Assembly (NCBI GenBank): GCA_964634875.1
Contig: CAZWKA010000007.1
Coordinates: 1,649-65,648 of the forward strand
Origin: an uncultured Gammaproteobacteria bacterium
Lineage (GTDB): Bacteria > Patescibacteriota > Patescibacteriia > Magasanikbacterales > GWA2-37-8
Length of the DNA: 64,000 bases
Direction: 5' to 3'
Position 1 is the first letter of the stretch; each line of letters starts with the position of its first letter. This document shows, one piece after another, positions 1,583 to 27,715 of this stretch. The notes beneath the pieces are model-generated. The model ran no database searches. It worked only from the letters and a program-made list of their open reading frames with translations, and was not told the DNA's origin. The position numbers were made by a program, and so were the translations under genes.

Positions 1583-1932
1583 GATCAGGCTCCTTTTGCG
1601 AAGGCGGTGCCGATCACGGCAGCCTTTTGGTAAATATCTCGTTTCCCCTCCCACATAGTGGAGGGGTTGAGGAAGCGTGCTGCCATTATGAAATCCTCCT
1701 GGGCTGGGGTGGACAAGGCATTACCAGTTTTTTCCCACTCTGGGACTTGGACGAGAAGGGACCGGCTGTTTCCCTTCACTTTTTTCCTAAAACTCATCAG
1801 AAAAAAAATAAAAGGAACATCCAGTCCCGTTTATTGCTTTTTAAAGAGCGTGGCAAAGTTATGTAGAAAACTTAGACATGGCCGAATACAGCCCTTTACC
1901 CTATCTCAAAAAGGCCTTTTTGGCAAGGGTGC

Positions 1933-2700: not shown

Positions 2701-3294
2701 TTATTTTTCCCAAACGAAATTGCTTACGAGCCACGACGAACCTGAGCGCACCATGGTAACGGTAATATTTTGCTGGGAAGTGGTGGTCGCACCATCCTTC
2801 TGCTGCGTACGGACAGTTTTAAAATATAATTCAGCCGTATCAGGCGTCCACGCTTTCATTTCCATTGTAACGACCTGAGTAGTAACACCTACAAAACTAG
2901 TAGCAGGGGTCGTGCTTTGAGGCTTGATCCGCTGCCAAACTTCTGGCGTTACCAACACCTGAACCTCAGTAACGTTTTGACTGTTATTATCACTGGAATA
3001 CGTACCATACCGCTCCACAAAAACACGGGCGAGTTGTTTTACCCCATTTTGAAGGATTTCTTCAGAACTTGCCTGGCGGACCGGAAGACCCGCAGGAATT
3101 TCGGTAGGCTGTTGGGTTGAGCCGGTCGGGATGCCACCCTGGCCGTCTGGAGGCAGCAGCGTGTCACCTGCCGGGTTTTGTCCGGGAGTTTCTTTGTTTG
3201 CCCGAGAGCGGATAAACAAGGCGACACCTACCACTGCTATAACAAGCACAACGATACCAACGATGATAAAGATGCGAGAGCGCAAGGAAAGCAT
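2701..3294 (-). CDS. Hypothetical membrane-anchored protein at the end of the type IV secretion system (T4SS)-like operon (single N-terminal TM helix plus about 160-aa extracytoplasmic domain)
   Basis: N-terminal segment IFIIVGIVVLVIAVVGVALFI. Co-directional with and immediately downstream of VirB4. Confidence 0.5.
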   Translation of the reverse strand: MLSLRSRIFIIVGIVVLVIAVVGVALFIRSRANKETPGQNPAGDTLLPPDGQGGIPTGSTQQPTEIPAGLPVRQASSEEILQNGVKQLARVFVERYGTYSSDNNSQNVTEVQVLVTPEVWQRIKPQSTTPATSFVGVTTQVVTMEMKAWTPDTAELYFKTVRTQQKDGATTTSQQNITVTMVRSGSSWLVSNFVWEK

Positions 3295-3318
3295 AGGGAG
3301 AAAATTAGATAGTAGGAA

Positions 3319-5199
3319 TTAATGGGCGTTTTGCTGATCAAATTCTTTTTTCGCCTTCTCGATATCCAAAAGCTGCTGGGGATTAGTGGTAACAATCTGG
3401 TCTTCGGTATACGAAGCCACTACTTTGATCGCCGCATGCTTAAGACCGGCAAAGAAAATTCCTTCGCCAATACCGCTTTCGAGGAGCAAATATTTTTCGC
3501 TATCGGTCAGCAAGAACACTTTTTGGATCAGATCAATGGCTGCAGGCGACTGGCGCATGAGGAGCTGCAAGGACGAGCTGGTTACGATCGCTTGGCCATA
3601 CTGTGACTTAAGGAAATCATTCACATCCTGAGTGATGGTCGTTACACCCAAGAAGTATTTACGGCAGCGTTTGACGAGCGCATAAATAAACTTGGCACTA
3701 TCTTCATGCTGCATAAGCCACCACGCCTCATCAATAACCAGAATACGTTTTTTGCGCTCACTCCGGACGACATTCCAAATATAGTTCACAATAGCGTAAA
3801 TAGCCAATGGACGGAGTTCATCTTCCAAATCACGAACACTGAAAACAACAAGCTGGTTACGCATGTCGACGTTAGTCGGTGAATTAAAGAGACCGCTAAA
3901 GGTACCCTCGGTAAACTTTTGGAGTTTCAAAACCAGGTCTGCCGAACCCTCCATGCCTTCCAGGATTTCCTGGAGATCCTGCATGATGGGGGCTTGGATA
4001 GTATTTAAATCAGCTTCGGCCGTAATGTCCTTCTTGGCATACGTTTCAATCAGGGCCCGGTCAACAATCGAATCTTCTTGTGTGGTTATACCCCCAAGCA
4101 TAATACGCAGCAAACCTTTGACGGTAATGACTGCACCGCGAATAATATCTTCGGTGGAAAAATCCTTGCCTGTTGGCCGCGGCAGATCAAAAGGGTTAAT
4201 TTTACTTTCGCTCGACAAGGAAATATTGATGTACGTTCCACCCACCGCATCGGACAAATGTTTATATTCCATTTCTGGGTCAATGATGATAACATCAATA
4301 CCCATCATGAGGCTACGCAATATTTCCAATTTGATCGCATAACTTTTACCAGCACCAGAGGTAGCAAATACTACCATGTTGGCATTTTGCAAAGAAAACC
4401 GATCAAACAAAATCAAGCTATTATTGTGGCGGTTAATACCGTATAAAATTCCATCATCGCTCGTCAGCTCAGCTGAAATAAATGGGAACGAGGCAGCAAT
4501 TGGCGAGGAGTTCATGTTAAACGAGATCATCAGCTCGTCATTACACAGCGGCAGCGTTGAATTGAAGCCTTGTTCACCCTGGAACAAAACCTTGCGACTG
4601 CTAATGAGCTTGGCACCGAAAATACCTTCAATGTCCTCGGAGATTTGATCTAATTTTTCTTTAGTTTCGGCGTAGATAGTAACGTAAAAAGCAAATTGGA
4701 AGAAGTGCTCGACACCCTGAGTCAGGTTATCACGAAGCTGTTCAACATCGCGCAGCGCCGTCTCGCGCAGCGGGTCACGAGGGGCACCTTTATCAGCATC
4801 AGCATTAATCTGGGCTTCAAGCGCACCAACTTTGTTCTTGAGCTGCTTTAAAATGATCTCCGACTTAACCGGATAAAAGAACATGCTGATATCCATGGTG
4901 ATCGAAAGATTGATGACCGGCGAGCTCCATCCAATTGAAATATACCGAGGGTAAGAAACGACAAAAATAGTCCGGCAAAAGACTGTGCCGACCTGCAAAA
5001 AATTCGTTTCAACATTAAACGCTGCCGGGGCGATCAGGTCTCGGATCGAAACAACGCCTTCGCGGTAGATCCGCTCTTCTTCAAGCGTAATTAACTCCTC
5101 CTGCTCTTTCTTTTTGAGCACACCTTCTTCGCTCGCCAACTTTTTTCGGGCAGCGGAGTCGTCATTTTTACTATTGAGAAATTTTGGTTTAAAAGCCAT
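3319..5199 (-). CDS. virB4: VirB4/TrbE/CagE-family type IV secretion ATPase, Gram-positive-type (626 aa)
   Basis: Walker A motif FATSGAGKS. Walker B / 'DEAW' motif ILVIDEAWWL. Overall VirB4 architecture. Confidence 0.85.
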   Translation of the reverse strand: MAFKPKFLNSKNDDSAARKKLASEEGVLKKKEQEELITLEEERIYREGVVSIRDLIAPAAFNVETNFLQVGTVFCRTIFVVSYPRYISIGWSSPVINLSITMDISMFFYPVKSEIILKQLKNKVGALEAQINADADKGAPRDPLRETALRDVEQLRDNLTQGVEHFFQFAFYVTIYAETKEKLDQISEDIEGIFGAKLISSRKVLFQGEQGFNSTLPLCNDELMISFNMNSSPIAASFPFISAELTSDDGILYGINRHNNSLILFDRFSLQNANMVVFATSGAGKSYAIKLEILRSLMMGIDVIIIDPEMEYKHLSDAVGGTYINISLSSESKINPFDLPRPTGKDFSTEDIIRGAVITVKGLLRIMLGGITTQEDSIVDRALIETYAKKDITAEADLNTIQAPIMQDLQEILEGMEGSADLVLKLQKFTEGTFSGLFNSPTNVDMRNQLVVFSVRDLEDELRPLAIYAIVNYIWNVVRSERKKRILVIDEAWWLMQHEDSAKFIYALVKRCRKYFLGVTTITQDVNDFLKSQYGQAIVTSSSLQLLMRQSPAAIDLIQKVFLLTDSEKYLLLESGIGEGIFFAGLKHAAIKVVASYTEDQIVTTNPQQLLDIEKAKKEFDQQNAH

Positions 5200-5263
5200 A
5201 CCTTCATTGGAACACTAGAGCATTAAAACACCAGAACAAAAGGGTGTTTTAATGTTTTCATGA

Positions 5264-5953
5264 TTAAATCCCCTCTTCAACCTGCAGGTCGCTGAGCGCG
5301 GGCAGGTGTTCAGTGAGAGCAATATCTGGGTTATACGTGGAATAATACAACTCGATCAGCGCTTGGGTATCAAGCCTCACAATTGTAAGGCCCATACTTG
5401 ACAAACCGGATTCAATCTGGCGAACACGCATGTCAAGATCGTATTTACGCTGCAAAAACTTTTCTCCTTTAAGATGTATGGCATTTGCAGGATTCAGGAC
5501 TTCAGTAATACGGGTCCAAAAACTTTTTTGGTGGTTAGACACTGGATCATACGGGACAACTACAAAAAATTGTTTACTCATAATTTCACCAAGGCTGATC
5601 AGCTCGGTAACAAATGAGCGATAATCAGCGATCTGAGCACGGAGGAGTTCGTTAACCTGTTCACGCTCTTGTTGTAGGAGCTTGTCGAGGTAAGGTTTGA
5701 TATACAGCTTCCGGCTTTGGATAAGTACTTGAAGCGGATATTCGAGCGAGTTTAAAAATGAAACATACGAAGAAATAATCGCGTTTTGCTCATCTTCATT
5801 TTTGAGGGCAAAATTAATACTTGAAACCAGGAGCACAGCCCGAAGCGTCCCGTCTTTCATGATAACGGTGTCATTCTTAATTTCGCCGATCAAAAGATGG
5901 AGTTGTGACGGGACCAGTTTTTTTTTACTTTTGGCTGCATGTTTGTTTTTCAT
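5264..5953 (-). CDS. VirB4 N-terminal-domain-like protein (CagE/TrbE/VirB N-terminal domain family), encoded as a separate ORF upstream of the ATPase
   Basis: The segment LVPSQLHLLIGEIKNDTVIMKDGTLRAVLLVSSINF resembles the conserved start of VirB4 N-domains (for example the pKM101 TraB segment YLPYIGHLSDHIVLLEDGSIMSIARIDG). A 64-nt gap containing stops separates it from the ATPase ORF. Confidence 0.45.
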   Translation of the reverse strand: MKNKHAAKSKKKLVPSQLHLLIGEIKNDTVIMKDGTLRAVLLVSSINFALKNEDEQNAIISSYVSFLNSLEYPLQVLIQSRKLYIKPYLDKLLQQEREQVNELLRAQIADYRSFVTELISLGEIMSKQFFVVVPYDPVSNHQKSFWTRITEVLNPANAIHLKGEKFLQRKYDLDMRVRQIESGLSSMGLTIVRLDTQALIELYYSTYNPDIALTEHLPALSDLQVEEGI

Positions 5954-5955
5954 AC

Positions 5956-6384
5956 CTAATTTTCAGCCTTATAATAACCACCCGTATTGACCATCAGTGA
6001 CAAATTACGGATACGCATAGCTGGGACTTGCTTCGAGACCGCTTCAACTGCCAGCTCGGCAGCAGGAACCATTTTGCGCAAATCATTCAACTCACCCGTA
6101 GTATAACTTTTATTCCACACTCGACGGCTCGGACGGCGGGCAGCTTGAAAAATATTGAGCAAAAAATAATGGAATGATTGGCCGTTAATTTTGACAAACG
6201 CTAAAATGATCGCAAAACCACCAATCAACGCCAGCGCAGCAATAAACAATGGCGTGTCGGCTAATTTGAAGACAATAAAAAGCAAGAGCCCAGCCACAAG
6301 CAGAATTACAAATTGGCGGGTCGTTATCGGACCAAAAATCTTGTCTTCAACATCAATAAATTGTGGAACGGTAAATTGATTCAT
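5956..6384 (-). CDS. PrgI-family small membrane protein (VirB3 analogue of Gram-positive conjugation systems)
   Basis: VPQFIDVEDKIFGPITTRQFVILLVAGLLLF matches the PrgI-family signature (..KIKEKFIFGLTKRQ..) followed by two TM helices. It sits immediately upstream of VirB4, as in Gram-positive T4SS loci. Confidence 0.6.
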   Translation of the reverse strand: MNQFTVPQFIDVEDKIFGPITTRQFVILLVAGLLLFIVFKLADTPLFIAALALIGGFAIILAFVKINGQSFHYFLLNIFQAARRPSRRVWNKSYTTGELNDLRKMVPAAELAVEAVSKQVPAMRIRNLSLMVNTGGYYKAEN

Positions 6385-6391
6385 GGTAGGG

Positions 6392-7531
6392 CTAGGTTAA
6401 CTCTTTTTCCATGGAAATAAGGGCGTTTATCTCGGCGATCTGGATTTTGTTCTTATCAACCAGGACAGCACTGAGCGGACGGTGCTCAGCCAAACCTTGG
6501 GTTAATGCTTCCATATACGCCAAATATAATGGCGAGGTCTGCCAGGCATGTAGAGCCTGCAAATAAAGCACGATCGATTCATCTCTCAGGTTAGTGAACT
6601 TTTCCTGTAGACGTTTAGCTGCTTCAGTAGGATTAGCAGCTAAACGACGAAAATCAGTTAAGTTAAAGCGGGCAATTTCATCAACCGGACCAACTTCGAG
6701 TGTCACCTGCGCAACATCACGGACTAAAGGTTTTACCACTGGTTGACTACCTAATTTAAGCGGTGCTTCCAGCGGGCGCGGCTGACGCGGAGCAGACCGG
6801 GTCATTACCGGCGCAGGAGAAGGAGGTGGATTTTTTAGGGGAACCCCCTCTTTTTTAAGAGCTATAAGATCTTTAATTTCTAGAGGAGCAGCTGTGGTGG
6901 CGCTCCCCATAAGGGCATCAAACTCTTTGGATGTTTTTTTTGGCAAAACTGCAGAGGGTTGATGTGTAGGGTGTTTGAAGGCATTAAAGGGCGTGCTGAT
7001 GGCCGGGAACTTGGCGGCCTGAACAATAGCAGGCTCAAGTGTTTTCTTGGGTGGCGGCGTGACTGACCCACCAATTTCGAGGTCAGGGACAACAATATTT
7101 TTGGCAGCAATAGTAAACGCTGACGCAGCTGTTTTGGCGGCGGTTGAGCCGTGACCATCGGCCAGCTGCAAAACTTGCTCTTTTTGTTCATCGTTTAAAC
7201 CAAGACCGCCTTCCGCTACCGGCCTCCCCAAAGCGTTTTCGGTTTCAGCGCGGCTGCGGACGTCTTTAAGATACAGCTGGATAATGCTTCGGAAACGATT
7301 TTGGTTGTCGGGCGAAGCAAGCTTGCCAACCTGTTTCATGATCGCTTCGACTTCTACCCCCCGACTGGCGCTGGCAAGCGGAGTTGCAGGAGTTGCAACA
7401 ACCGGGGCAGGTGTTGCAGCCACGGCTTCAGGATTTTTTTTGAGCGCCTGAAGTTCACCGAGGGTCATGCGAACCACCGTTCCATCGGCTTTTTTCACCG
7501 TAACCATGGGTTGTCCAGTAAGAGGCGCCAT
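6392..7531 (-). CDS. Hypothetical T4SS-associated protein with Pro/Ala/Thr-rich low-complexity segments
   Basis: 379-aa ORF in the operon. Repeats such as AATPAPVVATPATP. No recognisable catalytic motifs. Confidence 0.45.
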   Translation of the reverse strand: MAPLTGQPMVTVKKADGTVVRMTLGELQALKKNPEAVAATPAPVVATPATPLASASRGVEVEAIMKQVGKLASPDNQNRFRSIIQLYLKDVRSRAETENALGRPVAEGGLGLNDEQKEQVLQLADGHGSTAAKTAASAFTIAAKNIVVPDLEIGGSVTPPPKKTLEPAIVQAAKFPAISTPFNAFKHPTHQPSAVLPKKTSKEFDALMGSATTAAPLEIKDLIALKKEGVPLKNPPPSPAPVMTRSAPRQPRPLEAPLKLGSQPVVKPLVRDVAQVTLEVGPVDEIARFNLTDFRRLAANPTEAAKRLQEKFTNLRDESIVLYLQALHAWQTSPLYLAYMEALTQGLAEHRPLSAVLVDKNKIQIAEINALISMEKELT

Positions 7532-7532
7532 G

Positions 7533-8519
7533 CTATAGAGCTAAAAGTTCGTCATTCCAATGGAACTGCCCATCGGACTCATTAAAATAATAGAGATCAT
7601 TAATTTTTTCATCCCGGTATTCTTCAGCGAGGTTACTAAGGAGGTTAAAAACTGCTCCCGGGTCAAGAAACTGCCCAGTAGCATCCTTCGTAAAATTAGC
7701 TTCGACATTTTTCTTAATTTCAGCATACGAAATTTTTTCACGAACCGGTTCTGTCGCTGGTGCCGCAAGCGTTTCTGGGCTAAATTGGGGAGCTATGCCT
7801 GCCGATTCATCTGCCCTTGTTTCAAGGGCAGCGGCAAAATTTTCATACCGATCCGGATTAATGTACGCACTTACAACATAGGGAGCTTTTTCAGGCTCAA
7901 CCCCAACGAAAAAATTCACTAAATCAATAAAACGTTCAACCGTTTCATTAGGATTAGCAAAAAAATAGGCATCAAACAACGGGTCATCTTTAACAAAAAA
8001 GATGGTTTGGATCTTGGATGCTATTTCTGCAGCCTCGATAGAGGTAGCCTGCGGACGCTGCATGCGTTTAACCATTTCAACAACTTCCACAACTGTAACA
8101 TTTTTACCGGCCAACGTGCCGACGATTGCCTCTGATGTTAAGAAGGCATTTCGCATATCACTGTACCAACCGCCAACTTCTGCATCATCAGTCGTGCGTA
8201 ACCCAAGATAGTCAAGTAGTCGATAATGCACATCTACATCAAGTAAAAACGCCGTAGGAATCTGCCGTGCACAAGCAACCTCCACTACAGTTGAACCGCG
8301 GAGATTGGTCAACATTTTCCAGGTAAGATCGGTATACCAGCGAAATAAGCTATAAAAATACTTCCGGTCTTCAAGCGCAGACTTATCAGCAAAAAAATCA
8401 TAAAGCTCTTGCCAAGCAAGTTGCATTTTTTTAGGCTCCCGAGAAAGGCCGCGAAAATCTTCTTCGATCTTGGCGATTTCAGCTGGAGTGTTTTTAAATT
8501 GTGGAATGTTGAAGAACAT
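7533..8519 (-). CDS. Hypothetical T4SS-associated protein
   Basis: 328-aa ORF tightly packed between the VirB6-like gene and the 379-aa gene (the start of 6392..7531 lies 2 nt after its stop). Confidence 0.45.
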   Translation of the reverse strand: MFFNIPQFKNTPAEIAKIEEDFRGLSREPKKMQLAWQELYDFFADKSALEDRKYFYSLFRWYTDLTWKMLTNLRGSTVVEVACARQIPTAFLLDVDVHYRLLDYLGLRTTDDAEVGGWYSDMRNAFLTSEAIVGTLAGKNVTVVEVVEMVKRMQRPQATSIEAAEIASKIQTIFFVKDDPLFDAYFFANPNETVERFIDLVNFFVGVEPEKAPYVVSAYINPDRYENFAAALETRADESAGIAPQFSPETLAAPATEPVREKISYAEIKKNVEANFTKDATGQFLDPGAVFNLLSNLAEEYRDEKINDLYYFNESDGQFHWNDELLAL

Positions 8520-8531
8520 TTTTTATTTTTA

Positions 8532-11342: not shown

Positions 11343-11778
11343 TTTTTGGGGATCAACAATCGATGGGGATAACGGAACAAACTATTTTAGCTTACGTGAC
11401 TATCAACTATTTTTTTATAATTACGATTCGTTGTAGTCTGGTTTGCTTATCCTGCTCCACCTCCTTACCACTAGCTTTTCATTCCCGCGCAGGCGGGAAG
11501 TCCAGTGCACGTAGCACATGTCTTGCCTTTTGGATTACTGCCTACACGGGAATGGCATCTAAAGGCAGGCAGCAGGCTCACCGTCTCACGAATTATCCAC
11601 AGCTGATTATTGCTAACATAAGGTAAACTATGTCAGTATGGCCACAGTGAAGCACTTGACTTTTTTTTCAAAATTACGACGATTTAAGCTATAGTAATAC
11701 GTTTTGTTCATTACAACTACCTAACCAACCTTTTAACGCGGTTGTTTAGCGCTACAATCACCAAGCTTAGCTCCACTT

Positions 11779-11823
11779 CTAGGGTTGCGCCAACTATCGA
11801 ATATATAGCTGGCGCAACCCTAG
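11779..11823. promoter_or_regulatory. Near-perfect 17-bp-arm inverted repeat at the boundary of a GC-rich cassette (operator or boundary hairpin)
   Basis: ctagggttgcgccaact / atcgaatatat / agctggcgcaaccctag. Confidence 0.35.
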
Positions 11824-11898
11824 AAAGGAGCTTTTCCGTGAAACGCTGAGGTGCATGCCGCGCCTCAGCAAGTTACCGGCCTCGGAAGGAGCATGACC

Positions 11899-12459
11899 AT
11901 GAGCACGAAGAAGGAGTCTCTGTGCAAGCCGACCCCCCACAACCACCTCACGCTCGCGGCCCTCATCGCCGCACTCACCCTCAGCAGCGCCTGCGGCGGA
12001 GCCGTGGGGAAGGACGACCTGAACTCGGCCACGGCCAACACGCAGACCTCGATCGCCGACGTCGCCAAGGAGTGCGCCGACTCGAAGAAGGCGAGCGAGG
12101 AGACGAAGAAGGCCTGCGACGACCAGATCAAGAGCTGCGAGGACACGAAGCGGGTCTGCGAGATGCCGACCCCCAGCGCCATGACGACGGCGCGCTGCCA
12201 GGCGCTGATGCCGGCAGCCAACCGCACGTTCACCAAGTGTGGCGCCAAGATGGAGAGCGGCAAGCTGTGGCTCGACGTGGCCAACAAGTCGAACCCCGCC
12301 CTCAAGGACGTGGACTGCGTGGTCAACCTGACCGGCATCCTCGGGGAGGGCACGATCCCCATCAACAACCTCCACGTGACGCAGTGGAGCGACGCGGGCG
12401 ACCTGATCCTCAAGTTCTGGATCGATCACCCGCTCGGACGGACGATCTGCGAGCCCTAG
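11899..12459 (+). CDS. Cysteine-rich lipoprotein, hypothetical. GC-rich foreign cassette.
   Basis: GGAAGGAG sits 7 nt upstream of the ATG. Signal peptide LTLAALIAALTLSSAC with Cys right after the lipobox. 11 Cys in the mature part. The antisense and other-frame ORFs 11794..12486 (-) and 11922..12581 (+) are GC-composition artefacts. Confidence 0.65.
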   Translation: MSTKKESLCKPTPHNHLTLAALIAALTLSSACGGAVGKDDLNSATANTQTSIADVAKECADSKKASEETKKACDDQIKSCEDTKRVCEMPTPSAMTTARCQALMPAANRTFTKCGAKMESGKLWLDVANKSNPALKDVDCVVNLTGILGEGTIPINNLHVTQWSDAGDLILKFWIDHPLGRTICEP

Positions 12460-12555
12460 CTCGCCTACCCGCTGGCTCGCCTTCACCCCACCCCGGGGAT
12501 CGAAGGCGAGCCAACGGAGATTTCAAAAATTTACAACATACTTTATATATTTTTG

Positions 12556-12597
12556 AAAAAACAAAACCCTCTATAAAATAGAGGGTTTTGTTTTTTA
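12556..12597. terminator. Bidirectional rho-independent terminator
   Basis: aaaaccctctataaaatagagggtttt with T-runs on both sides. It ends both the plus-strand cassette gene and the minus-strand giant gene. Confidence 0.6.
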
Positions 12598-12618
12598 CTT
12601 ATACCTCTTCAAGACATT

Positions 12619-15600
12619 TTACTCTGCAGGAGCAGCAATGATAATTTTATTGGCAAAAGGAGTAAAGGCAAAATCATCTACCGCCGCACTACACTCTTTA
12701 ACACCGTTAGATCGAGGATCATTGTAGCACCCTGAAGCACGACCCGCACAATTTCCATTACACCACCCCCAATTATCAACCACCTGTACTTTTGGCACAA
12801 ATTCACAACAGCCATTTGGGAAGTTCGCAGGGCATTGGGCAGCCTCTTTAAAGCCGACACTATCGCGTGAACAGAAGTACACATGATCGAACAAGCGATA
12901 ATTAGCCACACAGGTTTTATCAATAATCCGACCAAAACTTTGGGCTGAGGCCTCTGGAGCACACACTGGCTCAATAACACAATCAGAATTTACTCTACAG
13001 ACAGTCTTAAGGTCGCGTGGAACTACACACTTACCAACCGGAGTCTGAGGATCATTTGGCAAGAGACAGGTTGCACCAGGTTTACCATTAGGCCCACCCG
13101 TGCAATCAGCATTTGTAGTACAAGAGATATCTTGAAGGTCTTTTACGACACAGTGTTTTTCGGCACCAACCGTTTCACATGTTGGCTGCTGATAGCCACG
13201 GTAGTTACGACCAGCTTGTTGGCCTGGCAAGGTGCTTTTACCGTCGCCCCAAAACACATTAACTTCACGGATAGGCATCTGATCGGCGTCCGCGGCAACG
13301 AAAAATTGCAGATCAACTTTGGCGCTTGGGGTGCGGCGGATAATATCTCTTCCTTGTGGTTCATTATCAATAGTCATGCCTGGCTTAGTCTGGTCTTCGA
13401 GACAGTGTCCTTCGGCATTACAAGCACCAACAGGGAACACAACTGGTGGACGAGGTTTTTTCTGCCAATCACCCGTAGCCGTTTTATCATTAAACGCACC
13501 TTTCGTGACCGCAAAAACGTTGCTGGAGTTGAATGTATACAAAGTATTAACCCGCGCAAATAACGAACCAAACGAATTGTTAGAATCAGCTGAGCTTGCC
13601 CCAACCTTTGTAGCATTTTTAACAGTCCCATCAGCCAACACCTGTAAACAACTTGATTTTGGGCCTCCAAGACATGCATATGGCGAACCAGGAACATACG
13701 TCGGCACTGCAGCATTACCTTTTACGATACTTAAAGGATACTTACAATTTTCTAGCCCAAACGATGGGAAACAGGTTGTCTCACTCTCTTTAGGCTCAAA
13801 CGGAGTCATGATAAGCGGCTGATTTTGATTCATGCTAGCTATTCCCAAACTACCAAAAGGTGCAATCGGGGTGGTGTACATATAGCCTAGACCGGCGAAA
13901 CCGAAATCACCATTGTAACTACTTGAAATACTATAGAGCGACTGCTTCCAAAGACGATTAGTCCAAGGGATCGATCGATCATCGGACGAACCTACTGTAT
14001 CGACTTCGGCTATACGAGTACAAATCTGTCGAAGCTTAAAACTCACTTTGTATTTGATAAAGTGGTCATCCCCGGCATCATACGAACCATGATAAAGGGT
14101 TCTGTAACCAAGGAAGGTTCCGTCATTATCAAACGTAAAGAGGATGGCATGCCAATTACCTTCGCCTGCGTGGGTGTCGGCAATAGTAGCGTTGGTGACA
14201 CTAGGGTTCCAAAACCCAAGTTCACCAAGATTTGTGCCTCGATTAGTTATGCCGCTTGGAACAAAAATGTTGCCATTCAACATTCCACAGTCACCCTTTG
14301 GCCCAGTATTTGCACATTCTGCAGAAAAGCTGCCATCATCCCCCATACAAATGTTTCCCTCTTGGCTTACAAACTCTCCATGTGTTCCATCGCGCTTCTT
14401 ACTACCGTACATGTAAATGAATTCGTTCGGCTTGCCCATGTAATGGCCAGTAAGTGCGCGTCCCGGGCCTTGCATATGATCTTTTGTCTGGTAAACAGTC
14501 TGAGGCTGGTCAAGGGGCGTAGCAGCATTTGGCCAAATCTCAAAAATGGCACCATTTGGATCTTCACTGTCCCGAATATCCTGGGTATGGATGATTATTT
14601 TCTCAATATCAGATTTACGCAATTTGCGCTCGTCTGCTGTTGCTTGATAAAAATCACGGTTGGTTGAGCCTACAAAGGTAGCAGCATTCCTAAATGGACT
14701 ATTCCAGTCACACGAGGTACCAGATTGGCCATACATATCCGACTGCTGGATTTTCTTGTTGTCATAAAATTCATAGGTACCAAACAACAAATCTTGGCCA
14801 TAAAAATACCTGCTCGCTGGATACGGCATGGCCGGATCCATTTTATCACCACCGGCATTGTTGGCGTCCAAGCAGTACTCACGACCAGACGCCAACCCCA
14901 AGTCAGCAGGAGATTGGTAACCGGCATCAGGATGCTGCTCGTTAATGTCGTTTGACCCGATAATACTGTCAACAGGGAACCAAGACAAGCAAGGGAAAAC
15001 ACCCTGCGCAGCGTTCACGTTGCGGGAGCTATCCGGTTCCAGACAAAAACCTTTCCAGCCTAAGAGCTGTTCGTTCCGACGTTGTTTTTGGCATGTTCCA
15101 GGCGTCTTGCCGGTCATCTGACAACCTTCATCATCGCTACAAGCTGAACCTTCTTTAAAACCACCCTGACAAATACCTTGGGGGACTTTTAAGTTACTTC
15201 CTGGTACCGCAGCAGCATCAAGCGTATTTGGTTTCTGGTAGTTCCAATACTTAGTGAGCGCACCATCACCGTAGGTAACCTTGGTATAGTTACAATCACA
15301 CGCCCCGGATACACTTGGGTCAGAGGTAAAACCATTGGTTTCACTACAGAACTTGGCATTACTAAACTGAGAAATTGCTTTTCCAATCACCGTCGTATTA
15401 GGGAACGGCGAATCCTTTTCAGGATACAAACGGCAGGCTTCAGCCGGAGACTTCTTAACCACCTCGCCAATCGTGCCATCAGGGTTTTGTAAACAGAGGC
15501 CATTCAAACAAATACCAATTCCGCCTTGACCACAAACCTTATCATTTTCTTTACACGATGCGTCGTTCGGTGCTGCGGCGTCTACACAATTCGTATTACC

Positions 15601-18600
15601 GCATGGTATTCTTCGCACCAAACGGAACAAGGGATTAGCGCTTTGGCCGCTAATATTTACCTGAGCCAGCTCTTCAACTGGGAAGATACCTGGGATAGAC
15701 CAGCCGGTAAAATCCATACCCGCCCAACTTGTATCACGCTGGGTATATAGTTCAGGAGTTAATACCTGGCCAGAATATTCCCCACCACCTTCAACCCAAC
15801 TGGCGCAATTGGTTATATTACTTTCGGCTTGGTTTTCTGGGGCACGATCACAGCGGCCGATATCATCACAGACTATTTTCCATTTACCGGTTTTATCATC
15901 CCAAACACGATGGCTAGAACGGCACTGGAGCCATTCGCCACAGGTACGATCGTGGTCAACTTTAATAATGATATTAGCATCCGCTGGATTAGCAGTAGAG
16001 CCGTCAACCGGTTTGACGAGGGCATCCTGAGACTCCTGGCTGGCAGCATACGTCGCCTTGCTTGACCAGTATTTATTTGGATTATCAGGTTCGTCAAACA
16101 ACGCACAGCCTTTCTTCTGACTCACCGTACCATTACATTCCGCTCCATCAATCTTTTCGTTTTTAATATAATAGTAAGAACGATCATTATCATTGTGATC
16201 AACAAATTGAGTACATTTATCTTGGGCAGCCGGACACTCACCAACAAAGTTTTGATATTTAGCGCCATCACCATACGACCAGAGGCCATAATTATTGCCC
16301 TGCTGGACGTAATCTGCATAACACGGCTGCGCTCCTACACCCTGGCAGGTCGCACCAGTGCCACAATCAGCATTGGCAGAACAGAATTTGCCGCTGTTGT
16401 TGCTACAGATACCAACCCCTTTCCAGAACCAGCCACTAGATTTTACACCCTTTACGTTTACATCAGCCTGGTATGTACAAATCTTCTGACCGGTAACCAG
16501 CGGATCTTTAAAATATGAATCACCCGTTGCACTGCCGAACGCCGAACAACCTACTGCTTCTTTCTGGCAAAGTGTTGTTTCATACGCGGCCGGATCGTTT
16601 TTAACCAAAGCCGTGGTGTATTGGAGACCCGTTGGGGTTGATTTCTGGACACCCGCAAATGTACAACCAAGATCAGCAACATTACAGGAAGCAGCCTGGT
16701 TAGCAACGAGATACACAGGCGTTGTCGCTGGAGTATCAGCTGGTACATAGACGGTTGATTTTACAAAACTGCCTGCTCCGGCAACCTGGATAATCTCACT
16801 GGCCTCATGGCCGCTGATATTGACATAACACCCTGACTGTCCGACAGGAATCTGACACGAAACCGTATCATTGCCAAGTTGGATTTCAACTTTTGTTCCG
16901 CCGGTGCCGACAAGCCAAACATTGAAGGCTTTAGGACCAGCGTCGGCAGGAGTATTTTGGGTATCAAACAAGGCCGTACAACCAATCGCACCTTCACGGC
17001 AAAGGTAGTTAAAACCTGTCAAAGCAAAAGTCTTATTGCTCGGGTCTTTATACTGCATACAACCCAAAGCCTCGCCAGGCAAATTGTCATTCACGTTACT
17101 GTCACAAACCGGATCCACTTTAAGACTGTTCTTAACAAGATAAATATAATCAGTAACCTCGACGAGGCGGATGTTATCGAGATATAATTTGGCGTTGCCC
17201 TGATTTTTGAAAACCAATTGGCCTAGTGTCCCGGCTCCACCATATTCGATCGGCCCCAAGCGATAATAATTCCAGGTATCCCCCACCCCAACTGCACCAA
17301 AATCTTTGGAGTAATTACCCTCGGTCGAAGCCAGGCTGACAGTTAAGGACTGAGCGTCACCCTTTGCCCAGAACGTAAGGTCGTAACTCTTACTCGGGAC
17401 CACATTAATGTCGCGCGTCAGAGCCGCTGCTCCAAGGTAGCCCAAAGAATGCTCGCCAACGCGGGTAGATTCGCTCGAAAGTTGCACGGCAGCTGGTTTC
17501 CACGGGGTCAAAACAGGAGCAGTCGTACCTTCAAAAGTGTCATTAAATACTTCCTTAATATTGTTACCGGCATTCCCTTTATAAGCACGACACGTGTTGG
17601 CCGACGCTTGGCAAGATTTACTGGTGCCCGCTGTATTTTGAACACCATCTGGCAAACCGTAGTAGAAACAAGAACCGTTCTGGTACTCACCACCCTGCAA
17701 ACAGAGTTGACATTGGTTATTGTTCCAAAAACCCTTCTTAGTAGCACACGTAGCCTGATCATATGATGTCGGCAAGAGCTCGCTGTTATTTAAACGGTAC
17801 GGTGTACACGAGTTAGAAACCGGGATGGTTTTGGCGAGTAAACGGTAGTAAACATTACCCTCATCATCGTTAAACTGTCGGCAGTCTGGGTCTGCTTTGC
17901 CGCTCTTATAGAGGGCCTCACTGCACTGGCGGGCATAATTATCGGCATCACTCTCTGTGCGATAAAAATACTTTGGTCCACCTGTCTCATCTTTAACCAA
18001 GGTAAAGACTTTTAATTGGTAACCACCGACCGTAGAACCCTCGTAGGTAATAAAGTTTTTCTGAACATTTACGTCTGGTGTGGCGCAAGGGCGGAGATAT
18101 GAATAATGTTCGACATTTTCTACCTCACCAAGTGTCGTGCTAAGGTTGGTAAAACTGCTGCAACTTTCTTCTTGGGCACTGCAGGAAGAACCAGAAGCAG
18201 GAATTATATATGCAACATCCTGGCCAAGCGAATAATTACTTGGCATTTCGCGATAACTGGCATAGCCGACACATTTTGCATCACATTGGTCATTCCAGAC
18301 AATTTGTTTATCGACCACCTCAGCTGCTTTAAACCGGCCAGGAATTTTGCTGCCGCCCTGGGCTGAAGTGTACCAATTGCAATTTACTTCATCCGCAATA
18401 CAAGCACCGGCATAATTACTACATTGTGCCTTTGGTGTAATCCTGGCGAGATCAGCTGTCGTGTTGGCCCAATCAATTTTTCGGGTACTTGGATCACTGT
18501 CATAACAACCTAAATAGTCCGGAGCTTTTTTGAGATACAGACTGTTCTGATTATTTGTTGCACCAGCGATCTTAAAGGCAGAGCAACCAGCTGAATTAGC

Positions 18601-20556
18601 GCTACAGGAGGTAGAGACTTTATTATTGAAGAAAGCACCGTTATTTACATATCCAACAGCACTATCAGGGCCAGCTGGATCCTGCCAGTTGCCTGCACTA
18701 TCTTGCGACAAGCTATACGTAGTACAGCCGACATTATCTTTTGTACAAACACTGGTGTCGAGGCTGCGGTAAACATAAGCCCGCTGCGCACCGCTGGCAT
18801 CTACGAATGAGCGGCAGGTACGGAATTGTGCATCACAGCTGTCCGCATTAAAGCGCCAGGTATTTTTCTCGCGCGCACAGTAACCGTAACTACTGCAACT
18901 ACCATCGCTATTATAAGCGACACAAGTTGACAGGTCAGCACAGTCTTCGAGACGGTCAGGAGCATCGGAACTGAGCAAGTTAGCGCTAAAACCGAGGGCG
19001 TTACAGCGGGCGGCAGGAGCCTTGATTACCCAATCTGGATCGATGAGGTGGCAGAAAGGTTTGGTAATAGGGTCATACGTAACACCGACGATCTTACCCT
19101 GCGGATCCTTAATATAATTACAATCATTAAAGCCTTTCACTACTTGGCCGAGCGTCCAAGGCTGGTCAGGATCGCTTTTAGCGGCTGCAAGCTCAAACCC
19201 AAGCGGAATGATTCGGGCTTGGCGAAGGACTTTCAGGTTTGAATAGCAATAGGCATTCAAATAACAATTCTTATCAGAATTATCTTCGGCACGGCTTGGC
19301 GGGATAAGCTTAAATTCACCATGCAGCCACCCCTTGTCAATTGCTTCCTGGATTGTCGTTGGATTACCGTTGCCAATTTCTTGTGCTGCCTGCACCAAAC
19401 CAGCGTCTGCGCGACAGTTGTAGAGGCCAGCCGCATCCGGACAGCTACTTAGCTGACCCAGGATGTCATATTCATTAACTGTATTAGTACGGACAGCTAA
19501 GAAACCACTGAAAAGCTGTTCAGCCTGACGGCGACCACTTGTAACGCCGCTATCGCTAAAGCTTGTGACCGCGCTGTTGATTGAGGCGCAACTTTCGCCA
19601 CCAACTCCACCAACACACAAACCAAATGGCAACACGCCTTTTTGTTGGAAATTTTTAAGTACTGTTCCAGCCAAAGTGCTGAGGAAGAAATTTGCCAGGG
19701 CACCTGGAAGATTTTTATAGTTGCCGGAATTAATAGCCGCGGTGATCTGGTCGCCACTCTTATCGACCTGGCGGGCATTTCCGGTAGCCTTAAACTCTTC
19801 TGCAATTAATGGGGCAGGAGTTTGGATATCACCAGAGATATTGGTTTTTTTATCAACAAAACCCTGGTTAGCGATACGTTCGGAATCTGCGGCACCAACT
19901 GCTCTCGCAGCTTGCTGGCTAATCTTAGAGGAAGCGGCAAGCTGTATACCAAGTCCAGTCTCATCGATCTGGAAGGCAGAATTAAACTGCTGCTCGATGG
20001 AACCGCCTACCGAACTGAACTTGCTTCTCCAGGCCTCTGCACTCCAATTTTTTTGAAAATCCGAAAAAGTACATGCTGGCTTGCGGGTAGGATCCCCCGT
20101 TCCACCACTCGGCAAATTAACACGGATACCGACCTTCATTGCTAAATCAAGCTGTGGATCAGGAATGCTACACAAGTTAAAACCAGCTCCTTTACTTAAT
20201 TCTTCGATACCATGCCCAAGCGCATCATTACCAACATTTTTGAGGTAATCACCAAAACTTTTGGTCTGAGCAAATGGATTTTGGCCCTTGCCTCCAGAGG
20301 CAAGCCAGACAGCCGAATCATAAGCAACTTTACGCAAGACATACGACACAACCGTACCAGCCGCCGCTTGGACAGCTACTTTAAGGCCTTCCAAAATTTC
20401 ATCTTTGACTTTAAAAGTCGTAGCCACCACGTCTGTTGTTACTACAACAGGGATAGTCGCTTTGGCCGTCCCAGGGAAACCAAATGACCCAACCACACTG
20501 ACAAAAGCAACCACCGCAAGAATACCGGCTAAACCTATTTTTTTAAATATAGACAT
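12619..20556 (-). CDS. Giant (2645 aa) secreted or cell-surface cysteine-rich protein, N-terminally anchored
   Basis: Single uninterrupted ORF. N-terminal signal/anchor MSIFKKIGLAGILAVVAFVSVVGSFGFPGTAKA. Over 150 Cys, Gly/Asn/Ser/Thr-rich, no cytoplasmic-type motifs. Co-oriented directly upstream of the T4SS-like genes. Confidence 0.7.
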   Translation of the reverse strand: MSIFKKIGLAGILAVVAFVSVVGSFGFPGTAKATIPVVVTTDVVATTFKVKDEILEGLKVAVQAAAGTVVSYVLRKVAYDSAVWLASGGKGQNPFAQTKSFGDYLKNVGNDALGHGIEELSKGAGFNLCSIPDPQLDLAMKVGIRVNLPSGGTGDPTRKPACTFSDFQKNWSAEAWRSKFSSVGGSIEQQFNSAFQIDETGLGIQLAASSKISQQAARAVGAADSERIANQGFVDKKTNISGDIQTPAPLIAEEFKATGNARQVDKSGDQITAAINSGNYKNLPGALANFFLSTLAGTVLKNFQQKGVLPFGLCVGGVGGESCASINSAVTSFSDSGVTSGRRQAEQLFSGFLAVRTNTVNEYDILGQLSSCPDAAGLYNCRADAGLVQAAQEIGNGNPTTIQEAIDKGWLHGEFKLIPPSRAEDNSDKNCYLNAYCYSNLKVLRQARIIPLGFELAAAKSDPDQPWTLGQVVKGFNDCNYIKDPQGKIVGVTYDPITKPFCHLIDPDWVIKAPAARCNALGFSANLLSSDAPDRLEDCADLSTCVAYNSDGSCSSYGYCAREKNTWRFNADSCDAQFRTCRSFVDASGAQRAYVYRSLDTSVCTKDNVGCTTYSLSQDSAGNWQDPAGPDSAVGYVNNGAFFNNKVSTSCSANSAGCSAFKIAGATNNQNSLYLKKAPDYLGCYDSDPSTRKIDWANTTADLARITPKAQCSNYAGACIADEVNCNWYTSAQGGSKIPGRFKAAEVVDKQIVWNDQCDAKCVGYASYREMPSNYSLGQDVAYIIPASGSSCSAQEESCSSFTNLSTTLGEVENVEHYSYLRPCATPDVNVQKNFITYEGSTVGGYQLKVFTLVKDETGGPKYFYRTESDADNYARQCSEALYKSGKADPDCRQFNDDEGNVYYRLLAKTIPVSNSCTPYRLNNSELLPTSYDQATCATKKGFWNNNQCQLCLQGGEYQNGSCFYYGLPDGVQNTAGTSKSCQASANTCRAYKGNAGNNIKEVFNDTFEGTTAPVLTPWKPAAVQLSSESTRVGEHSLGYLGAAALTRDINVVPSKSYDLTFWAKGDAQSLTVSLASTEGNYSKDFGAVGVGDTWNYYRLGPIEYGGAGTLGQLVFKNQGNAKLYLDNIRLVEVTDYIYLVKNSLKVDPVCDSNVNDNLPGEALGCMQYKDPSNKTFALTGFNYLCREGAIGCTALFDTQNTPADAGPKAFNVWLVGTGGTKVEIQLGNDTVSCQIPVGQSGCYVNISGHEASEIIQVAGAGSFVKSTVYVPADTPATTPVYLVANQAASCNVADLGCTFAGVQKSTPTGLQYTTALVKNDPAAYETTLCQKEAVGCSAFGSATGDSYFKDPLVTGQKICTYQADVNVKGVKSSGWFWKGVGICSNNSGKFCSANADCGTGATCQGVGAQPCYADYVQQGNNYGLWSYGDGAKYQNFVGECPAAQDKCTQFVDHNDNDRSYYYIKNEKIDGAECNGTVSQKKGCALFDEPDNPNKYWSSKATYAASQESQDALVKPVDGSTANPADANIIIKVDHDRTCGEWLQCRSSHRVWDDKTGKWKIVCDDIGRCDRAPENQAESNITNCASWVEGGGEYSGQVLTPELYTQRDTSWAGMDFTGWSIPGIFPVEELAQVNISGQSANPLFRLVRRIPCGNTNCVDAAAPNDASCKENDKVCGQGGIGICLNGLCLQNPDGTIGEVVKKSPAEACRLYPEKDSPFPNTTVIGKAISQFSNAKFCSETNGFTSDPSVSGACDCNYTKVTYGDGALTKYWNYQKPNTLDAAAVPGSNLKVPQGICQGGFKEGSACSDDEGCQMTGKTPGTCQKQRRNEQLLGWKGFCLEPDSSRNVNAAQGVFPCLSWFPVDSIIGSNDINEQHPDAGYQSPADLGLASGREYCLDANNAGGDKMDPAMPYPASRYFYGQDLLFGTYEFYDNKKIQQSDMYGQSGTSCDWNSPFRNAATFVGSTNRDFYQATADERKLRKSDIEKIIIHTQDIRDSEDPNGAIFEIWPNAATPLDQPQTVYQTKDHMQGPGRALTGHYMGKPNEFIYMYGSKKRDGTHGEFVSQEGNICMGDDGSFSAECANTGPKGDCGMLNGNIFVPSGITNRGTNLGELGFWNPSVTNATIADTHAGEGNWHAILFTFDNDGTFLGYRTLYHGSYDAGDDHFIKYKVSFKLRQICTRIAEVDTVGSSDDRSIPWTNRLWKQSLYSISSSYNGDFGFAGLGYMYTTPIAPFGSLGIASMNQNQPLIMTPFEPKESETTCFPSFGLENCKYPLSIVKGNAAVPTYVPGSPYACLGGPKSSCLQVLADGTVKNATKVGASSADSNNSFGSLFARVNTLYTFNSSNVFAVTKGAFNDKTATGDWQKKPRPPVVFPVGACNAEGHCLEDQTKPGMTIDNEPQGRDIIRRTPSAKVDLQFFVAADADQMPIREVNVFWGDGKSTLPGQQAGRNYRGYQQPTCETVGAEKHCVVKDLQDISCTTNADCTGGPNGKPGATCLLPNDPQTPVGKCVVPRDLKTVCRVNSDCVIEPVCAPEASAQSFGRIIDKTCVANYRLFDHVYFCSRDSVGFKEAAQCPANFPNGCCEFVPKVQVVDNWGWCNGNCAGRASGCYNDPRSNGVKECSAAVDDFAFTPFANKIIIAAPAE

Positions 20557-20579
20557 ACCTGGCCTAGAGTCAAGTGAAA

Positions 20580-21215
20580 TTAAGGTTGTGTGCTGGTTGA
20601 ACTCGCTTCAAGAGCTGCAAAGGCATCGAGCGTGCTTGACGAACTCATTGCCTCCGCTACTGTGGCGAGCAAGTCTTTGTCGGAAATTTTTTTCAAGTCT
20701 TCTTCATTGACGCCCGCCTGGATTAACATGGCACGGATTTGAGCGGGATCCTGCAGGGCAGCAGCAAAAGCAGCGGGTGTCAGACCATCAGGCTGTTCGG
20801 GCTCAGTAGGGATCGTAGAAGAAACAACACCCGATGAAGAAACGGTGGTTGCATCATTACATTGCCCTTTGGGGCAAAGCGCTAATCCTTTGGCCACAAC
20901 CTCTTTATCACTTAAGCCATAGCTAAAAGTGTCATACAAATACGGACTCGTGCTATACACATAGAGCTCGTCAAAATCGTTAAGTTCATCGTGATCCGTA
21001 TCGCGGTACCGTAACGCATCGGGAGTATTAACATCGTTTTTTAATGTCGTTGGTACTGTGCTTGTGAGAGCAAAAGGTGCGTAGAGCGTGTTGCGGATCT
21101 GTAAGAAACCTAAACCAACAGCAAGAACAGCAAAAACAAGCAGGAGGGAAAACCCAATTCTCTGCTCGCGAGTAAAGCTTCCGGTACGACTAAAATTCTC
21201 TGGCGCTTCCACCAT
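20580..21215 (-). CDS. Hypothetical membrane-anchored protein (N-terminal TM helix) upstream of the giant protein gene
   Basis: TM segment IGFSLLLVFAVLAVGLGFL. Its stop lies 24 nt upstream of the giant ORF start. Confidence 0.45.
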   Translation of the reverse strand: MVEAPENFSRTGSFTREQRIGFSLLLVFAVLAVGLGFLQIRNTLYAPFALTSTVPTTLKNDVNTPDALRYRDTDHDELNDFDELYVYSTSPYLYDTFSYGLSDKEVVAKGLALCPKGQCNDATTVSSSGVVSSTIPTEPEQPDGLTPAAFAAALQDPAQIRAMLIQAGVNEEDLKKISDKDLLATVAEAMSSSSTLDAFAALEASSTSTQP

Positions 21216-27159: not shown

Positions 27160-27345
27160 TCGTCCAGCTATGCCTGGCAAAGCCCGCTCTTTCTGTTGAC
27201 AGCCCCGCTGTCGACAACTCAAAAATACTCCCAACACTGTTGAGAGTATTTTTATTTCGCTAAAAATCAGCTTTGACCATTGACGACACCGCGTTTACGT
27301 GCTTCACTGTCTCTGCCGTAAAAGCGGCCACAACACTCCGTGGAG

Positions 27346-27705: not shown

Positions 27706-27715
27706 GAGTAGCCGC

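Follow-up and report, generated by a model that had tools for sequence, protein, structure and literature searches.

A relaxase-less chromosomal type IV secretion locus of a Magasanikbacterales bacterium (Patescibacteriota), with a giant cysteine-rich protein gene and comFC as neighbours

In the Patescibacteria, type IV secretion systems (T4SS) have become known from a genome survey (Quinonero-Coronel et al. 2025; PMC12102498) and from Southlakia, a member of the Saccharibacteria, where the T4SS is essential for epibiotic growth (Wang et al. 2023; PMC10633639); both papers are cited here for selected sections. The locus described in the following is of this kind. It is located in a stretch of 64,000 nucleotides (assembly GCA_964634875.1, contig CAZWKA010000007.1, positions 1,649 to 65,648; hereafter the window) from an uncultured bacterium assigned to the Magasanikbacterales by GTDB, and extends from position 21215 down to 1933, mostly on the minus strand. 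Judged by analogy with the Saccharibacteria, this relaxase-less chromosomal T4SS is, in identity and general role, probably a contact-dependent translocation machine of an epibiotic lifestyle.

The sections of the survey considered here describe a distinct Patescibacteria VirB4 clade sharing ancestry with the MPF-FATA class (MPF, mating-pair formation), with TrsD, PrgI and VirB6 often encoded adjacent to VirB4 (PMC12102498). A type IV coupling protein (T4CP) is rarely encoded near virB4 and KsgA is often close; VirD4-like genes are present elsewhere in many genomes, and relaxases occur in only 103 genomes, with a relaxase gene near virB4 in just 15 cases (PMC12102498). For class ABY1, the same sections report a linkage of the T4SS to comF, recG and radA as well as nearly all of the few VirB8 profile matches; structurally, no VirB8 was detected in Southlakia, and these sections report no detected Patescibacteria adhesin (PMC12102498). 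The Saccharibacteria T4SS has no recognisable coupling protein or relaxase according to the sections considered (PMC10633639), and deletion of comEC in Southlakia abolishes competence but leaves viability intact (PMC12857230; PMC10633639, same sections). A preprint of 2026 reports on a cultivated relative from the Minisyncoccota/Patescibacteriota that feeds on host RNA and forms tubular structures which may be T4SS pili. Large cysteine-rich extracellular proteins were described for other bacteria belonging to the candidate phyla radiation (CPR), i.e., Peribacteria, with no stated link to a T4SS (Anantharaman et al. 2016; PMC4736985).

Comparison with described systems

The locus is an instance of the T4SS described in 2023–2025, and its core machine adds nothing categorically new. 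In common with Patescibacteria-clade T4SS (Southlakia epibionticum SEML1_0006-0019, in the sections considered), it encodes a monoderm-type VirB4 with adjacent TrsD-like, PrgI/VirB3 and VirB6 proteins, resides at a conserved chromosomal site lacking nearby relaxase and coupling protein genes, and has ksgA and (as in ABY1) comF close by. It differs from the systems described there in that (i) neither a VirB2-like pilin array, frequent but not universal near virB4 in this clade, nor peptidase/lysozyme (VirB1-like) genes were seen in the window, (ii) a VirB8 fold is clearly present in the structure model, while none was detected structurally in Southlakia, and (iii) a giant cysteine-rich protein, a membrane protein with predicted thrombospondin type 3 (TSP3) repeats and a lipoprotein gene of extreme GC content at third codon positions (GC3) are encoded. 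None of these three is described in the sections considered of PMC12102498 or PMC10633639; in particular, those of the 2025 survey make no mention of a giant or cysteine-rich protein, and those of Wang et al. do not use the word lipoprotein.

Conjugative MPF-FATA systems (CTn2 with CD1110; pGO1 with TrsD; pCF10 with PrgH, PrgI, PrgJ and PrgL) share with the locus a VirB4 above the CD1110 cut-off, TrsD, PrgI, VirB6-like and VirB8-fold proteins as well as the lack of an outer-membrane core. Unlike them, the locus has no relaxase, T4CP, cell-wall hydrolase or PrgB-type adhesin, is not situated on a mobile element, encodes a VirB6 with a 560-amino acid (aa) hydrophilic extension, and its VirB4 shares at most 35 % identity with those of plasmids.

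Two relaxase-less, T4SS-derived systems are similar in lying near competence genes and conceivably importing nucleic acid, namely ComB of Helicobacter pylori, a partner of ComEC/ComF, and the Ced system of archaea. ComB, however, is a diderm VirB2-10 system whose outer-membrane parts are absent here, and the link to ComFC in the present locus is positional only. Differing from the Ced importer, the match to CedB is far under threshold (53.4 bits vs 700) and a CedA-like match is missing. The extended VirB6 proteins of Rickettsiales (Rickettsia, Anaplasma) likewise combine a polytopic core with a large hydrophilic C-terminal domain of variable length, again in reduced-genome, host-dependent bacteria whose T4SS is not used for conjugation; these are diderm MPF-T systems, in contrast to the monoderm class, the single VirB6 copy and the lack of detectable tail similarity found here. 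In case of the giant protein, the cysteine-rich proteins of Peribacteria are comparable in size (>1,500 aa), signal peptide, cysteine content (several %), proposed attachment role and strain-level variation, but the giant family differs by being Magasanikbacteria-specific and by its 97 positionally conserved cysteines and a domain with the fold of a carbohydrate-binding module (CBM).

Core components and gene order

An earlier note on this DNA had listed ten minus-strand genes from 21215 down to 1933, and the map of open reading frames (ORFs) recovers all ten at these coordinates. They do not form the unbroken series it had implied, since a plus-strand lipoprotein gene and a hairpin, both overlooked, interrupt the array; moreover, the start at 2701 that it gave leaves out comFC (1933-2679), although this gene was counted in. 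All ORFs >120 aa in the window were scanned against Pfam. Scanning of one genome per species yielded 80 related loci; informative titles are Magasanikbacteria (presumably a lineage of GTDB class ABY1) or unclassified Patescibacteria, and many carry generic labels of metagenome-assembled genomes.

The VirB4 ATPase (626 aa; 3319-5199, minus strand) is of the monoderm type (CD1110/MPF-FATA). It matches Pfam P-loop_TraG (1e-28), has the CD1110 VirB4 family as its best NCBIfam model (352.6 bits vs a cut-off of 325), and contains both Walker A (ATSGAGKS) and Walker B (ILVIDE) intact. Its best plasmid-encoded matches, from Firmicutes and Actinobacteria, do not exceed 35 % identity. The alignment with the CD1110 model begins at position 158 only, and the 229-aa product of the neighbouring gene (5264-5953, minus strand) provides the N-terminal part that is lacking, since this product matches NCBIfam TrsD/TraD (9.5e-9) and covers positions 91-234 of the Mbov_0397 VirB4 model as well as 25-95 of the CD1110 model. 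This TrsD-like gene adjoins virB4 in all related loci. The 142-aa protein encoded next to it (5956-6384, minus strand; 2 transmembrane (TM) segments) belongs to the VirB3-like PrgI family (Pfam PF12666, 2.5e-11, 44.4 bits vs a cut-off of 27). The assignments of a VirB4 ATPase, a VirB4 N-domain protein and a PrgI-like protein, made earlier from the sequence alone, are thus borne out by profile searches.

The 936-aa protein (8532-11342, minus strand) contains 7-8 TM segments within residues 1-370 and has no direct Pfam match; however, TrbL is matched in 5 of 39 orthologues (best 2e-6), and some homologues have precomputed PF04610/PF19590 matches, supporting by transitivity its assignment to VirB6/TrbL at the family level. 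Homologues with a source name are mostly from Candidatus Magasanikbacteria. While the previous VirB6/TrbL assignment holds, the coiled coil of about 500 aa attributed to its tail was not established: the tail of about 560 aa is hydrophilic, rich in A/K/G/D, poorly conserved and variable in length (orthologues of 910-1832 aa), with a heptad-like pattern in patches only.

The 197-aa protein (2701-3294, minus strand), previously listed as membrane-anchored, indeed has one TM segment, but its further identity had been overlooked. Pfam VirB8 matches below the cut-off (0.015; 15.5 vs 23.2 bits), and in 2 of 39 orthologues. An AlphaFold2 model built on 19 sequences (mean predicted local distance difference test (pLDDT) 79.3), as had been suggested for this protein, consists of a TM helix that is connected by a disordered linker to an NTF2-like α/β domain. 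Foldseek comparison with the Protein Data Bank (PDB) returned TrwG/VirB8 of R388, TcpC (3ub1), CagV, Brucella VirB8, PrgL (7aed) and DotI on top; these VirB8-family matches have a probability of 1.0 and target-normalized TM-scores mostly of about 0.5-0.66, and are interleaved with hub domains of CaMKII, which are likewise NTF2-like. On the basis of this model, the protein is confidently assigned as a VirB8-fold subunit. ComFC/ComF (248 aa; 1933-2679, minus strand) is composed of a double zinc ribbon and a phosphoribosyltransferase domain (DZR_2, PRTase; TIGR00201, 2.8e-29), in agreement with its earlier identification. Its gene starts 21 nt past the VirB8-like gene, and both are probably co-transcribed.

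Two soluble accessory proteins are encoded between VirB6 and PrgI. The lineage-specific p379 (379 aa; 6392-7531, minus strand) lacks TM segments and is present in essentially every related locus; in the alignment, both a VKKADGT motif at the N-terminus and a C-terminal domain are conserved, with a Pro/Ala-rich linker between them. The acidic p328 (328 aa; 7533-8519, minus strand) occupies a variable slot, which in relatives (L008-L079) contains 1-3 genes for proteins of 320-760 aa. Many of the acidic proteins among its relatives and replacements carry a motif of the type LYYF[DN]E..G.F.W at the C-terminus or close to it, and in a further recurrent family the sequences end with a motif of the type ..WLRE.L. 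A function of the former motif in docking or secretion is speculation. Neither p379 nor p328 has a Pfam, NCBIfam or PDB match, the slot proteins of relatives are devoid of Pfam domains, and PDB sequence-profile searches with p379, p328, the TrsD-like and the VirB8-like protein gave nothing useful.

Across the 80 loci, the co-oriented order KsgA, p211, giant protein, VirB6, (p328/others), p379, PrgI, TrsD, VirB4, VirB8-like protein, ComFC recurs. KsgA precedes p211 in 13 of 13 loci, VirB6 has the giant gene upstream in 50 of 59 and VirB4 downstream in 41 of 43, and ComFC follows the VirB8-like gene in each of the 26 loci with enough sequence; a synteny with com genes in related genomes, which the earlier note had proposed to check, therefore exists. 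The nine giant-less loci have housekeeping genes upstream of VirB6. Such genes (SecY, Map, AsnRS-like, others) precede VirB6 in L043, L045, L057, L067 and L069, whereas L015, which likewise has no giant gene there, instead encodes a 1367-aa protein with a lamin-tail domain upstream. The large ORFs flanking related loci (aminotransferases, tRNA synthetases, SecY, MreB etc.) comprise housekeeping functions only among the 25 families listed, and no coupling protein is among these. The gene order, the housekeeping flanks and the distance to plasmid VirB4 proteins (≤35 % identity) indicate the locus to be native and vertically inherited rather than an integrative conjugative element (ICE).

Sequence conservation is graded along the locus. 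Compared to the nearest relatives (L002, L003), VirB4 is 95 % identical, TrsD 89-91 %, PrgI 84 %, the giant protein 60 %, VirB6 46-62 %, the VirB8-like protein 57-60 %, p379 53 %, ComFC 48-51 % and p328 37 %, the latter value being obtained for the closest relatives with a 95 % identical VirB4; the lipoprotein slot shows no detectable homology between the window and these relatives. We infer very strong constraint on the VirB4/TrsD motor and rapid evolution of the surface-exposed and accessory parts, a pattern to be expected of a machine that faces the host.

Among the ORFs >120 aa of the window, none codes for a relaxase, a coupling protein, an integrase or a T4SS-type hydrolase, and T4SS-DNA_transf, TraG-D_C and TrwB domains are likewise absent. 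When small intergenic ORFs were scanned, no pilin-like protein with two TM segments turned up near the locus (no pilin profile was run). Hence, relaxase, VirD4 and pilin genes, none of which had been recognised in the window before, were not recovered with these approaches either. Att-like repeats, an integrase gene or a tRNA gene are likewise missing at the borders of the locus, the only tRNA genes of the window being located at 59452 and 62816, more than 38 kb away. The neighbouring genes in the window are of the housekeeping type and encode KsgA, Sua5, RF1, GroEL, YidC, NusA, LeuRS, IF2, RNase Y and RNase J.

As noted earlier, a truncated ComEC and its detached metallo-β-lactamase (MBL) domain are encoded elsewhere in the window: ComEC (38528-40174, minus strand) contains DUF4131 and Competence domains without MBL, and a stand-alone MBL gene (36530-37405, minus strand) follows 1.1 kb downstream, separated by genes for a methyltransferase and a 122-aa protein. 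Two further genes are worth mentioning. The leucyl-tRNA synthetase (1169 aa; 40880-44389, minus strand) carries an unusual inserted pair of NUDIX (residues 388-510) and HAD_2 (648-803) Pfam matches. A FabH-like gene (443-1654, minus strand; ACP_syn_III_C match) downstream of comFC has a GC3 of 0.66, i.e., above the housekeeping range; an orthologue follows comFC also in L003 and in Logan contig L081.

The giant protein unit and the convergent lipoprotein gene

The upstream unit begins with p211 (211 aa; 20580-21215, minus strand), a predicted bitopic membrane protein (TM residues 20-38), always directly followed by the giant gene. In the p211 family, Pfam TSP3_bac is matched in 14 of 21 orthologues (best 7.5e-7), and on this basis p211 is considered to carry degenerate bacterial TSP3-type Ca-binding repeats.

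The giant secreted protein (2645 aa; 12619-20556, minus strand) carries a conserved AxA site in its signal peptide, and contains one N-terminal hydrophobic segment and 110 cysteines, 97 of which are kept in at least 80 % of the sequences (32 full-length orthologues). Identity amounts to 40-69 % in residues 1-1900 and drops to 10-30 % in residues 1900-2550, a region of ordinary GC3, whereas the last ~100 residues, a Cys-rich C-terminus, are conserved again. Structure prediction, proposed earlier for the domains of this protein, was performed for residues 1-1150 (AlphaFold, mean pLDDT 63.5), with good values at 360-520 and 770-1150, and a CBM4/16/22-like β-sandwich is located in the core at residues ~1000-1150. 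One homologue displays NHL β-propellers at the CBM position and at a second site. The 197 homologues found are all unnamed hypothetical proteins, those with a source name being nearly always from Magasanikbacteria or unclassified Patescibacteria, and PDB sequences yielded no matches. These features are those of an adhesin that is secreted, stabilised by disulfides and equipped with exchangeable binding modules, as predicted from the sequence family. The CBM fold, the swappable modules and the hypervariable region agree with the previous proposal of a surface adhesin or filament as far as adhesin-like features are concerned, while the tie to the T4SS consists of conserved adjacency only.

A polymorphic toxin/immunity system was rejected, given that the variable region is internal and followed by the conserved Cys-rich C-terminus, that the gene located downstream runs convergently and its product is a secreted lipoprotein, and that no toxin domain was found. 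Co-variation of the variable region with the lipoprotein family was also discarded, the effect being tiny and confounded by phylogeny.

The giant and VirB6 genes are separated by a 1.3-kb gap. A gene for an RNA was considered for this gap and dismissed, as Rfam gave chance miRNA-like matches only and the gap codes for the lipoprotein (188 aa; 11893-12459, plus strand; GTG at 11851 as an alternative start), whose gene converges on the giant gene. Three inverted repeats are present. A hairpin with perfect 19-nt arms and A/T runs on either side (12556-12596), situated past the stop codon of the giant gene, looks like a bidirectional intrinsic terminator common to the giant and the lipoprotein gene. 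A GC-rich hairpin with 16-nt arms (12469-12517) follows just past the stop codon of the lipoprotein gene, and a palindrome with 21-nt arms (11777-11825) immediately 5' of this gene could represent an operator or a cassette boundary; the Rfam search of the palindrome returned chance-level miRNA matches only. The two latter structures, both strong hairpins, bracket the high-GC lipoprotein cassette; direct repeats flanking the cassette were not found.

The lipoprotein contains a signal peptide with the lipobox LSSAC (Cys34) and ten cysteines in all. Its gene has a GC3 of 0.96, in contrast to about 0.45 in the genome, 0.45 in the GroEL gene and values of 0.36-0.51 throughout the T4SS genes. The same slot in at least 38 related loci (L002-L078) contains a GC3-rich opposite-strand ORF of 120-320 aa (GC3 0.52-0.88 vs a background of 0.26-0.52), many of them with a lipobox-like signal; codon usage of the lipoprotein genes (GC3 0.6-0.96) is foreign to a genome of 38-50 % GC. 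At least five sequence families share the slot, the copy of the window belonging to a family of eight, and even its closest relatives (VirB4 95 %) have unrelated families in this position. Among 1.84 billion representatives, the mature lipoprotein has one homologue (40 % identity), on a contig that also carries related VirB6 and VirB8-like genes. The lipoprotein family alignment has a mean identity of 17 %. In the largest family, lipoprotein similarity and TrsD identity increase together (Spearman 0.43), and one pair shares 52 % identity at a TrsD identity of 95 %. The lipoprotein gene therefore appears to be largely vertically inherited and diverges very fast, with retention of a foreign codon usage.

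An assembly chimera can be rejected as a cause of the high-GC segment, as a GC3-rich opposite-strand ORF fills the slot in ~38 independent assemblies. A full explanation by recent transfer out of a high-GC donor is weakened by the tracking of TrsD identity and by the one homologue beside related VirB6 and VirB8-like genes. GC-biased gene conversion at a recombination hot spot and repeated exchange among relatives are candidate explanations, and the literature search found no publication on the anomaly.

High GC3 is not restricted to this gene. Ten plus-strand orphan genes in the window (26713-27159, 27340-27705, 27596-27979, 33500-33841, 48963-49475, 49790-51043, 51173-51748, 54264-55451, 56531-57007 and 62264-62629) have GC3 values of 0.61-0.93, as compared to 0.25-0.57 for housekeeping genes. 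Most of their products are small, rich in Cys and provided with a signal peptide or lipobox, and none has a Pfam match; that of 49790-51043 contains 9.6 % Cys in repeated CxxxxxCxSGxC units. These orphans account for the islands of 64 % GC (49.7-51.8 kb) and 56 % GC (54.2-55.5 kb).

Proposed function and competing explanations

One co-oriented block encodes a complete monoderm-type translocon of the cytoplasmic membrane, made up of the extended VirB6, PrgI/VirB3, a VirB4 split into TrsD-like and catalytic proteins, and the VirB8-fold subunit, with the soluble lineage-specific p328 and p379 encoded within the block and ComFC at its end. A second unit upstream, behind the presumed terminator, encodes the membrane protein with predicted TSP3 repeats and the 2645-aa disulfide-rich secreted protein, with the convergent, fast-evolving lipoprotein gene located between the two units. 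In the proposed mechanism, the machine would not be used for conjugation; by analogy with Saccharibacteria, it would serve contact-dependent exchange with a host bacterium, either exporting proteins or importing macromolecules of the host. Beside the channel, the giant protein and the lipoprotein would most likely act as components for recognition of, or adhesion to, the host surface.

As to the kind of apparatus, this agrees with the earlier view of a chromosomal, non-conjugative T4SS-like system: mobility genes are missing, the flanks are housekeeping genes, the order from ksgA to comFC recurs, and the locus matches the systems of PMC12102498, PMC10633639 (selected sections of both) and PMC12857230. 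Either of the two roles then considered, DNA uptake or cell-cell contact, may apply.

Several points weigh against a contact-dependent translocation machine that includes both units. Function is deduced by analogy with a different class (Saccharimonadia). The window covers 64 kb only, so that genes for a coupling protein, a relaxase or pilins could be located in other parts of the genome, and neither a VirB1-like hydrolase nor a pilin was found within the window. With regard to the position of ComFC, a nucleic-acid route is no less fitting than protein export. Finally, the unit of giant protein and p211 is transcriptionally separate (terminator and convergent gene) and may encode an independent surface protein; in 9 of 59 loci the giant gene is lacking at the position upstream of VirB6, and, as far as source names go, members of its family are known from the Magasanikbacteria lineage only.

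The last point leads to an explanation that we regard as quite possible, though not the favoured one, namely that the giant protein, p211 and the lipoprotein constitute an independent surface-adhesin module, with the secretion system comprising the block from VirB6 to VirB8 only. The strong predicted bidirectional terminator and the convergent gene parting the two units are in accordance with this, as are the nine loci with housekeeping genes upstream of VirB6 and the distribution of the giant family (197 homologues, lineage-confined where named), as opposed to the phylum-wide occurrence of the T4SS reported in the sections considered of PMC12102498. Moreover, cysteine-rich extracellular proteins of CPR bacteria are described without a stated T4SS link (PMC4736985), and the variable region of the giant protein does not clearly co-vary with the lipoprotein family. 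However, adjacency of the giant gene and VirB6 persists in 50 of 59 loci, down to ~33 % identity of the giant protein, where little else is syntenic. In addition, Gram-positive-type T4SS typically use a surface adhesin (PrgB), a role unfilled in the sections of the Patescibacteria survey considered, and this argues for a common function of both units.

Import of nucleic acids is a somewhat more doubtful, yet still plausible explanation. Here, the T4SS would take up host or environmental DNA or RNA and pass single strands to ComFC (and ComEC), comparable to ComB and Ced, thereby feeding an organism assumed, like other Patescibacteria, to be incapable of nucleotide synthesis. The start of comFC 21 nt past the VirB8-like gene and the retention of this order in 26 of 26 loci point in this direction, although the position of ComFC may reflect operon drift only. 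The linkage to comF, recG and radA reported for ABY1 (PMC12102498, in the sections considered), the presence of ComEC and the MBL gene within the window and the relative feeding on host RNA, with tubes possibly representing T4SS pili (2026 preprint), are also compatible with import. VirB4 matches CedB weakly (1.7e-14), but the score of ~53 bits vs a cut-off of 700 is far under that obtained with the conjugative CD1110 VirB4 family, and no recognisable DNA-binding or DNA-processing component is encoded in the locus. In Southlakia, the T4SS is essential while comEC is dispensable for viability (PMC10633639, selected sections; PMC12857230). Since loss of comEC ends competence but spares viability, the essentiality of the T4SS does not derive from ComEC-dependent uptake.

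An extension of the favoured contact-dependent machine, which we put forward as an unlikely but conceivable proposal, is a three-part host-contact module, composed of the motor and channel, the giant protein with exchangeable glycan-binding or β-propeller modules, and the lipoprotein conferring host specificity; the GC3 anomaly would then result either from GC-biased diversification or recombination of surface genes or from adaptation to a high-GC host.

A degenerate or resident ICE with relaxase and coupling protein outside the window is highly improbable: although monoderm conjugation machines have VirB4, TrsD, PrgI, VirB6 and VirB8 as their core, the analysis covered no more than 64 kb of the genome and VirD4-like genes occur elsewhere in many Patescibacteria genomes, it is rejected because the window contains no relaxase, T4CP or integrase gene and the borders no att-like repeat or tRNA gene, composition is native (GC3 0.36-0.51, like housekeeping genes), the locus occupies one chromosomal site, between ksgA and comFC, in dozens of divergent genomes, the 95 % identity of VirB4 between species with other proteins at 37-60 % points to strong purifying selection on a host function, and published relaxases are restricted to 103 genomes, with 15 cases close to virB4 (PMC12102498, in the sections considered).

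With the core machine corresponding to systems already described, the giant protein and, in particular, the hypervariable lipoprotein gene with its anomalous GC3 account for most of the remaining interest. To our knowledge, the T4SS of Patescibacteria is the only one known to be essential to its own bearer. The locus adds to its description a VirB8-fold subunit confidently assigned from the structure model, where the sections of the survey considered had sparse VirB8 profile matches (PMC12102498), and the steep conservation gradient from motor to surface points to the host-facing parts. Extreme GC3 in a vertically inherited gene represents a compositional puzzle that is open to population metagenomics, and the giant Cys-rich, CBM-bearing protein together with the hypervariable lipoprotein provides concrete candidates for the missing adhesin or specificity function of these systems.

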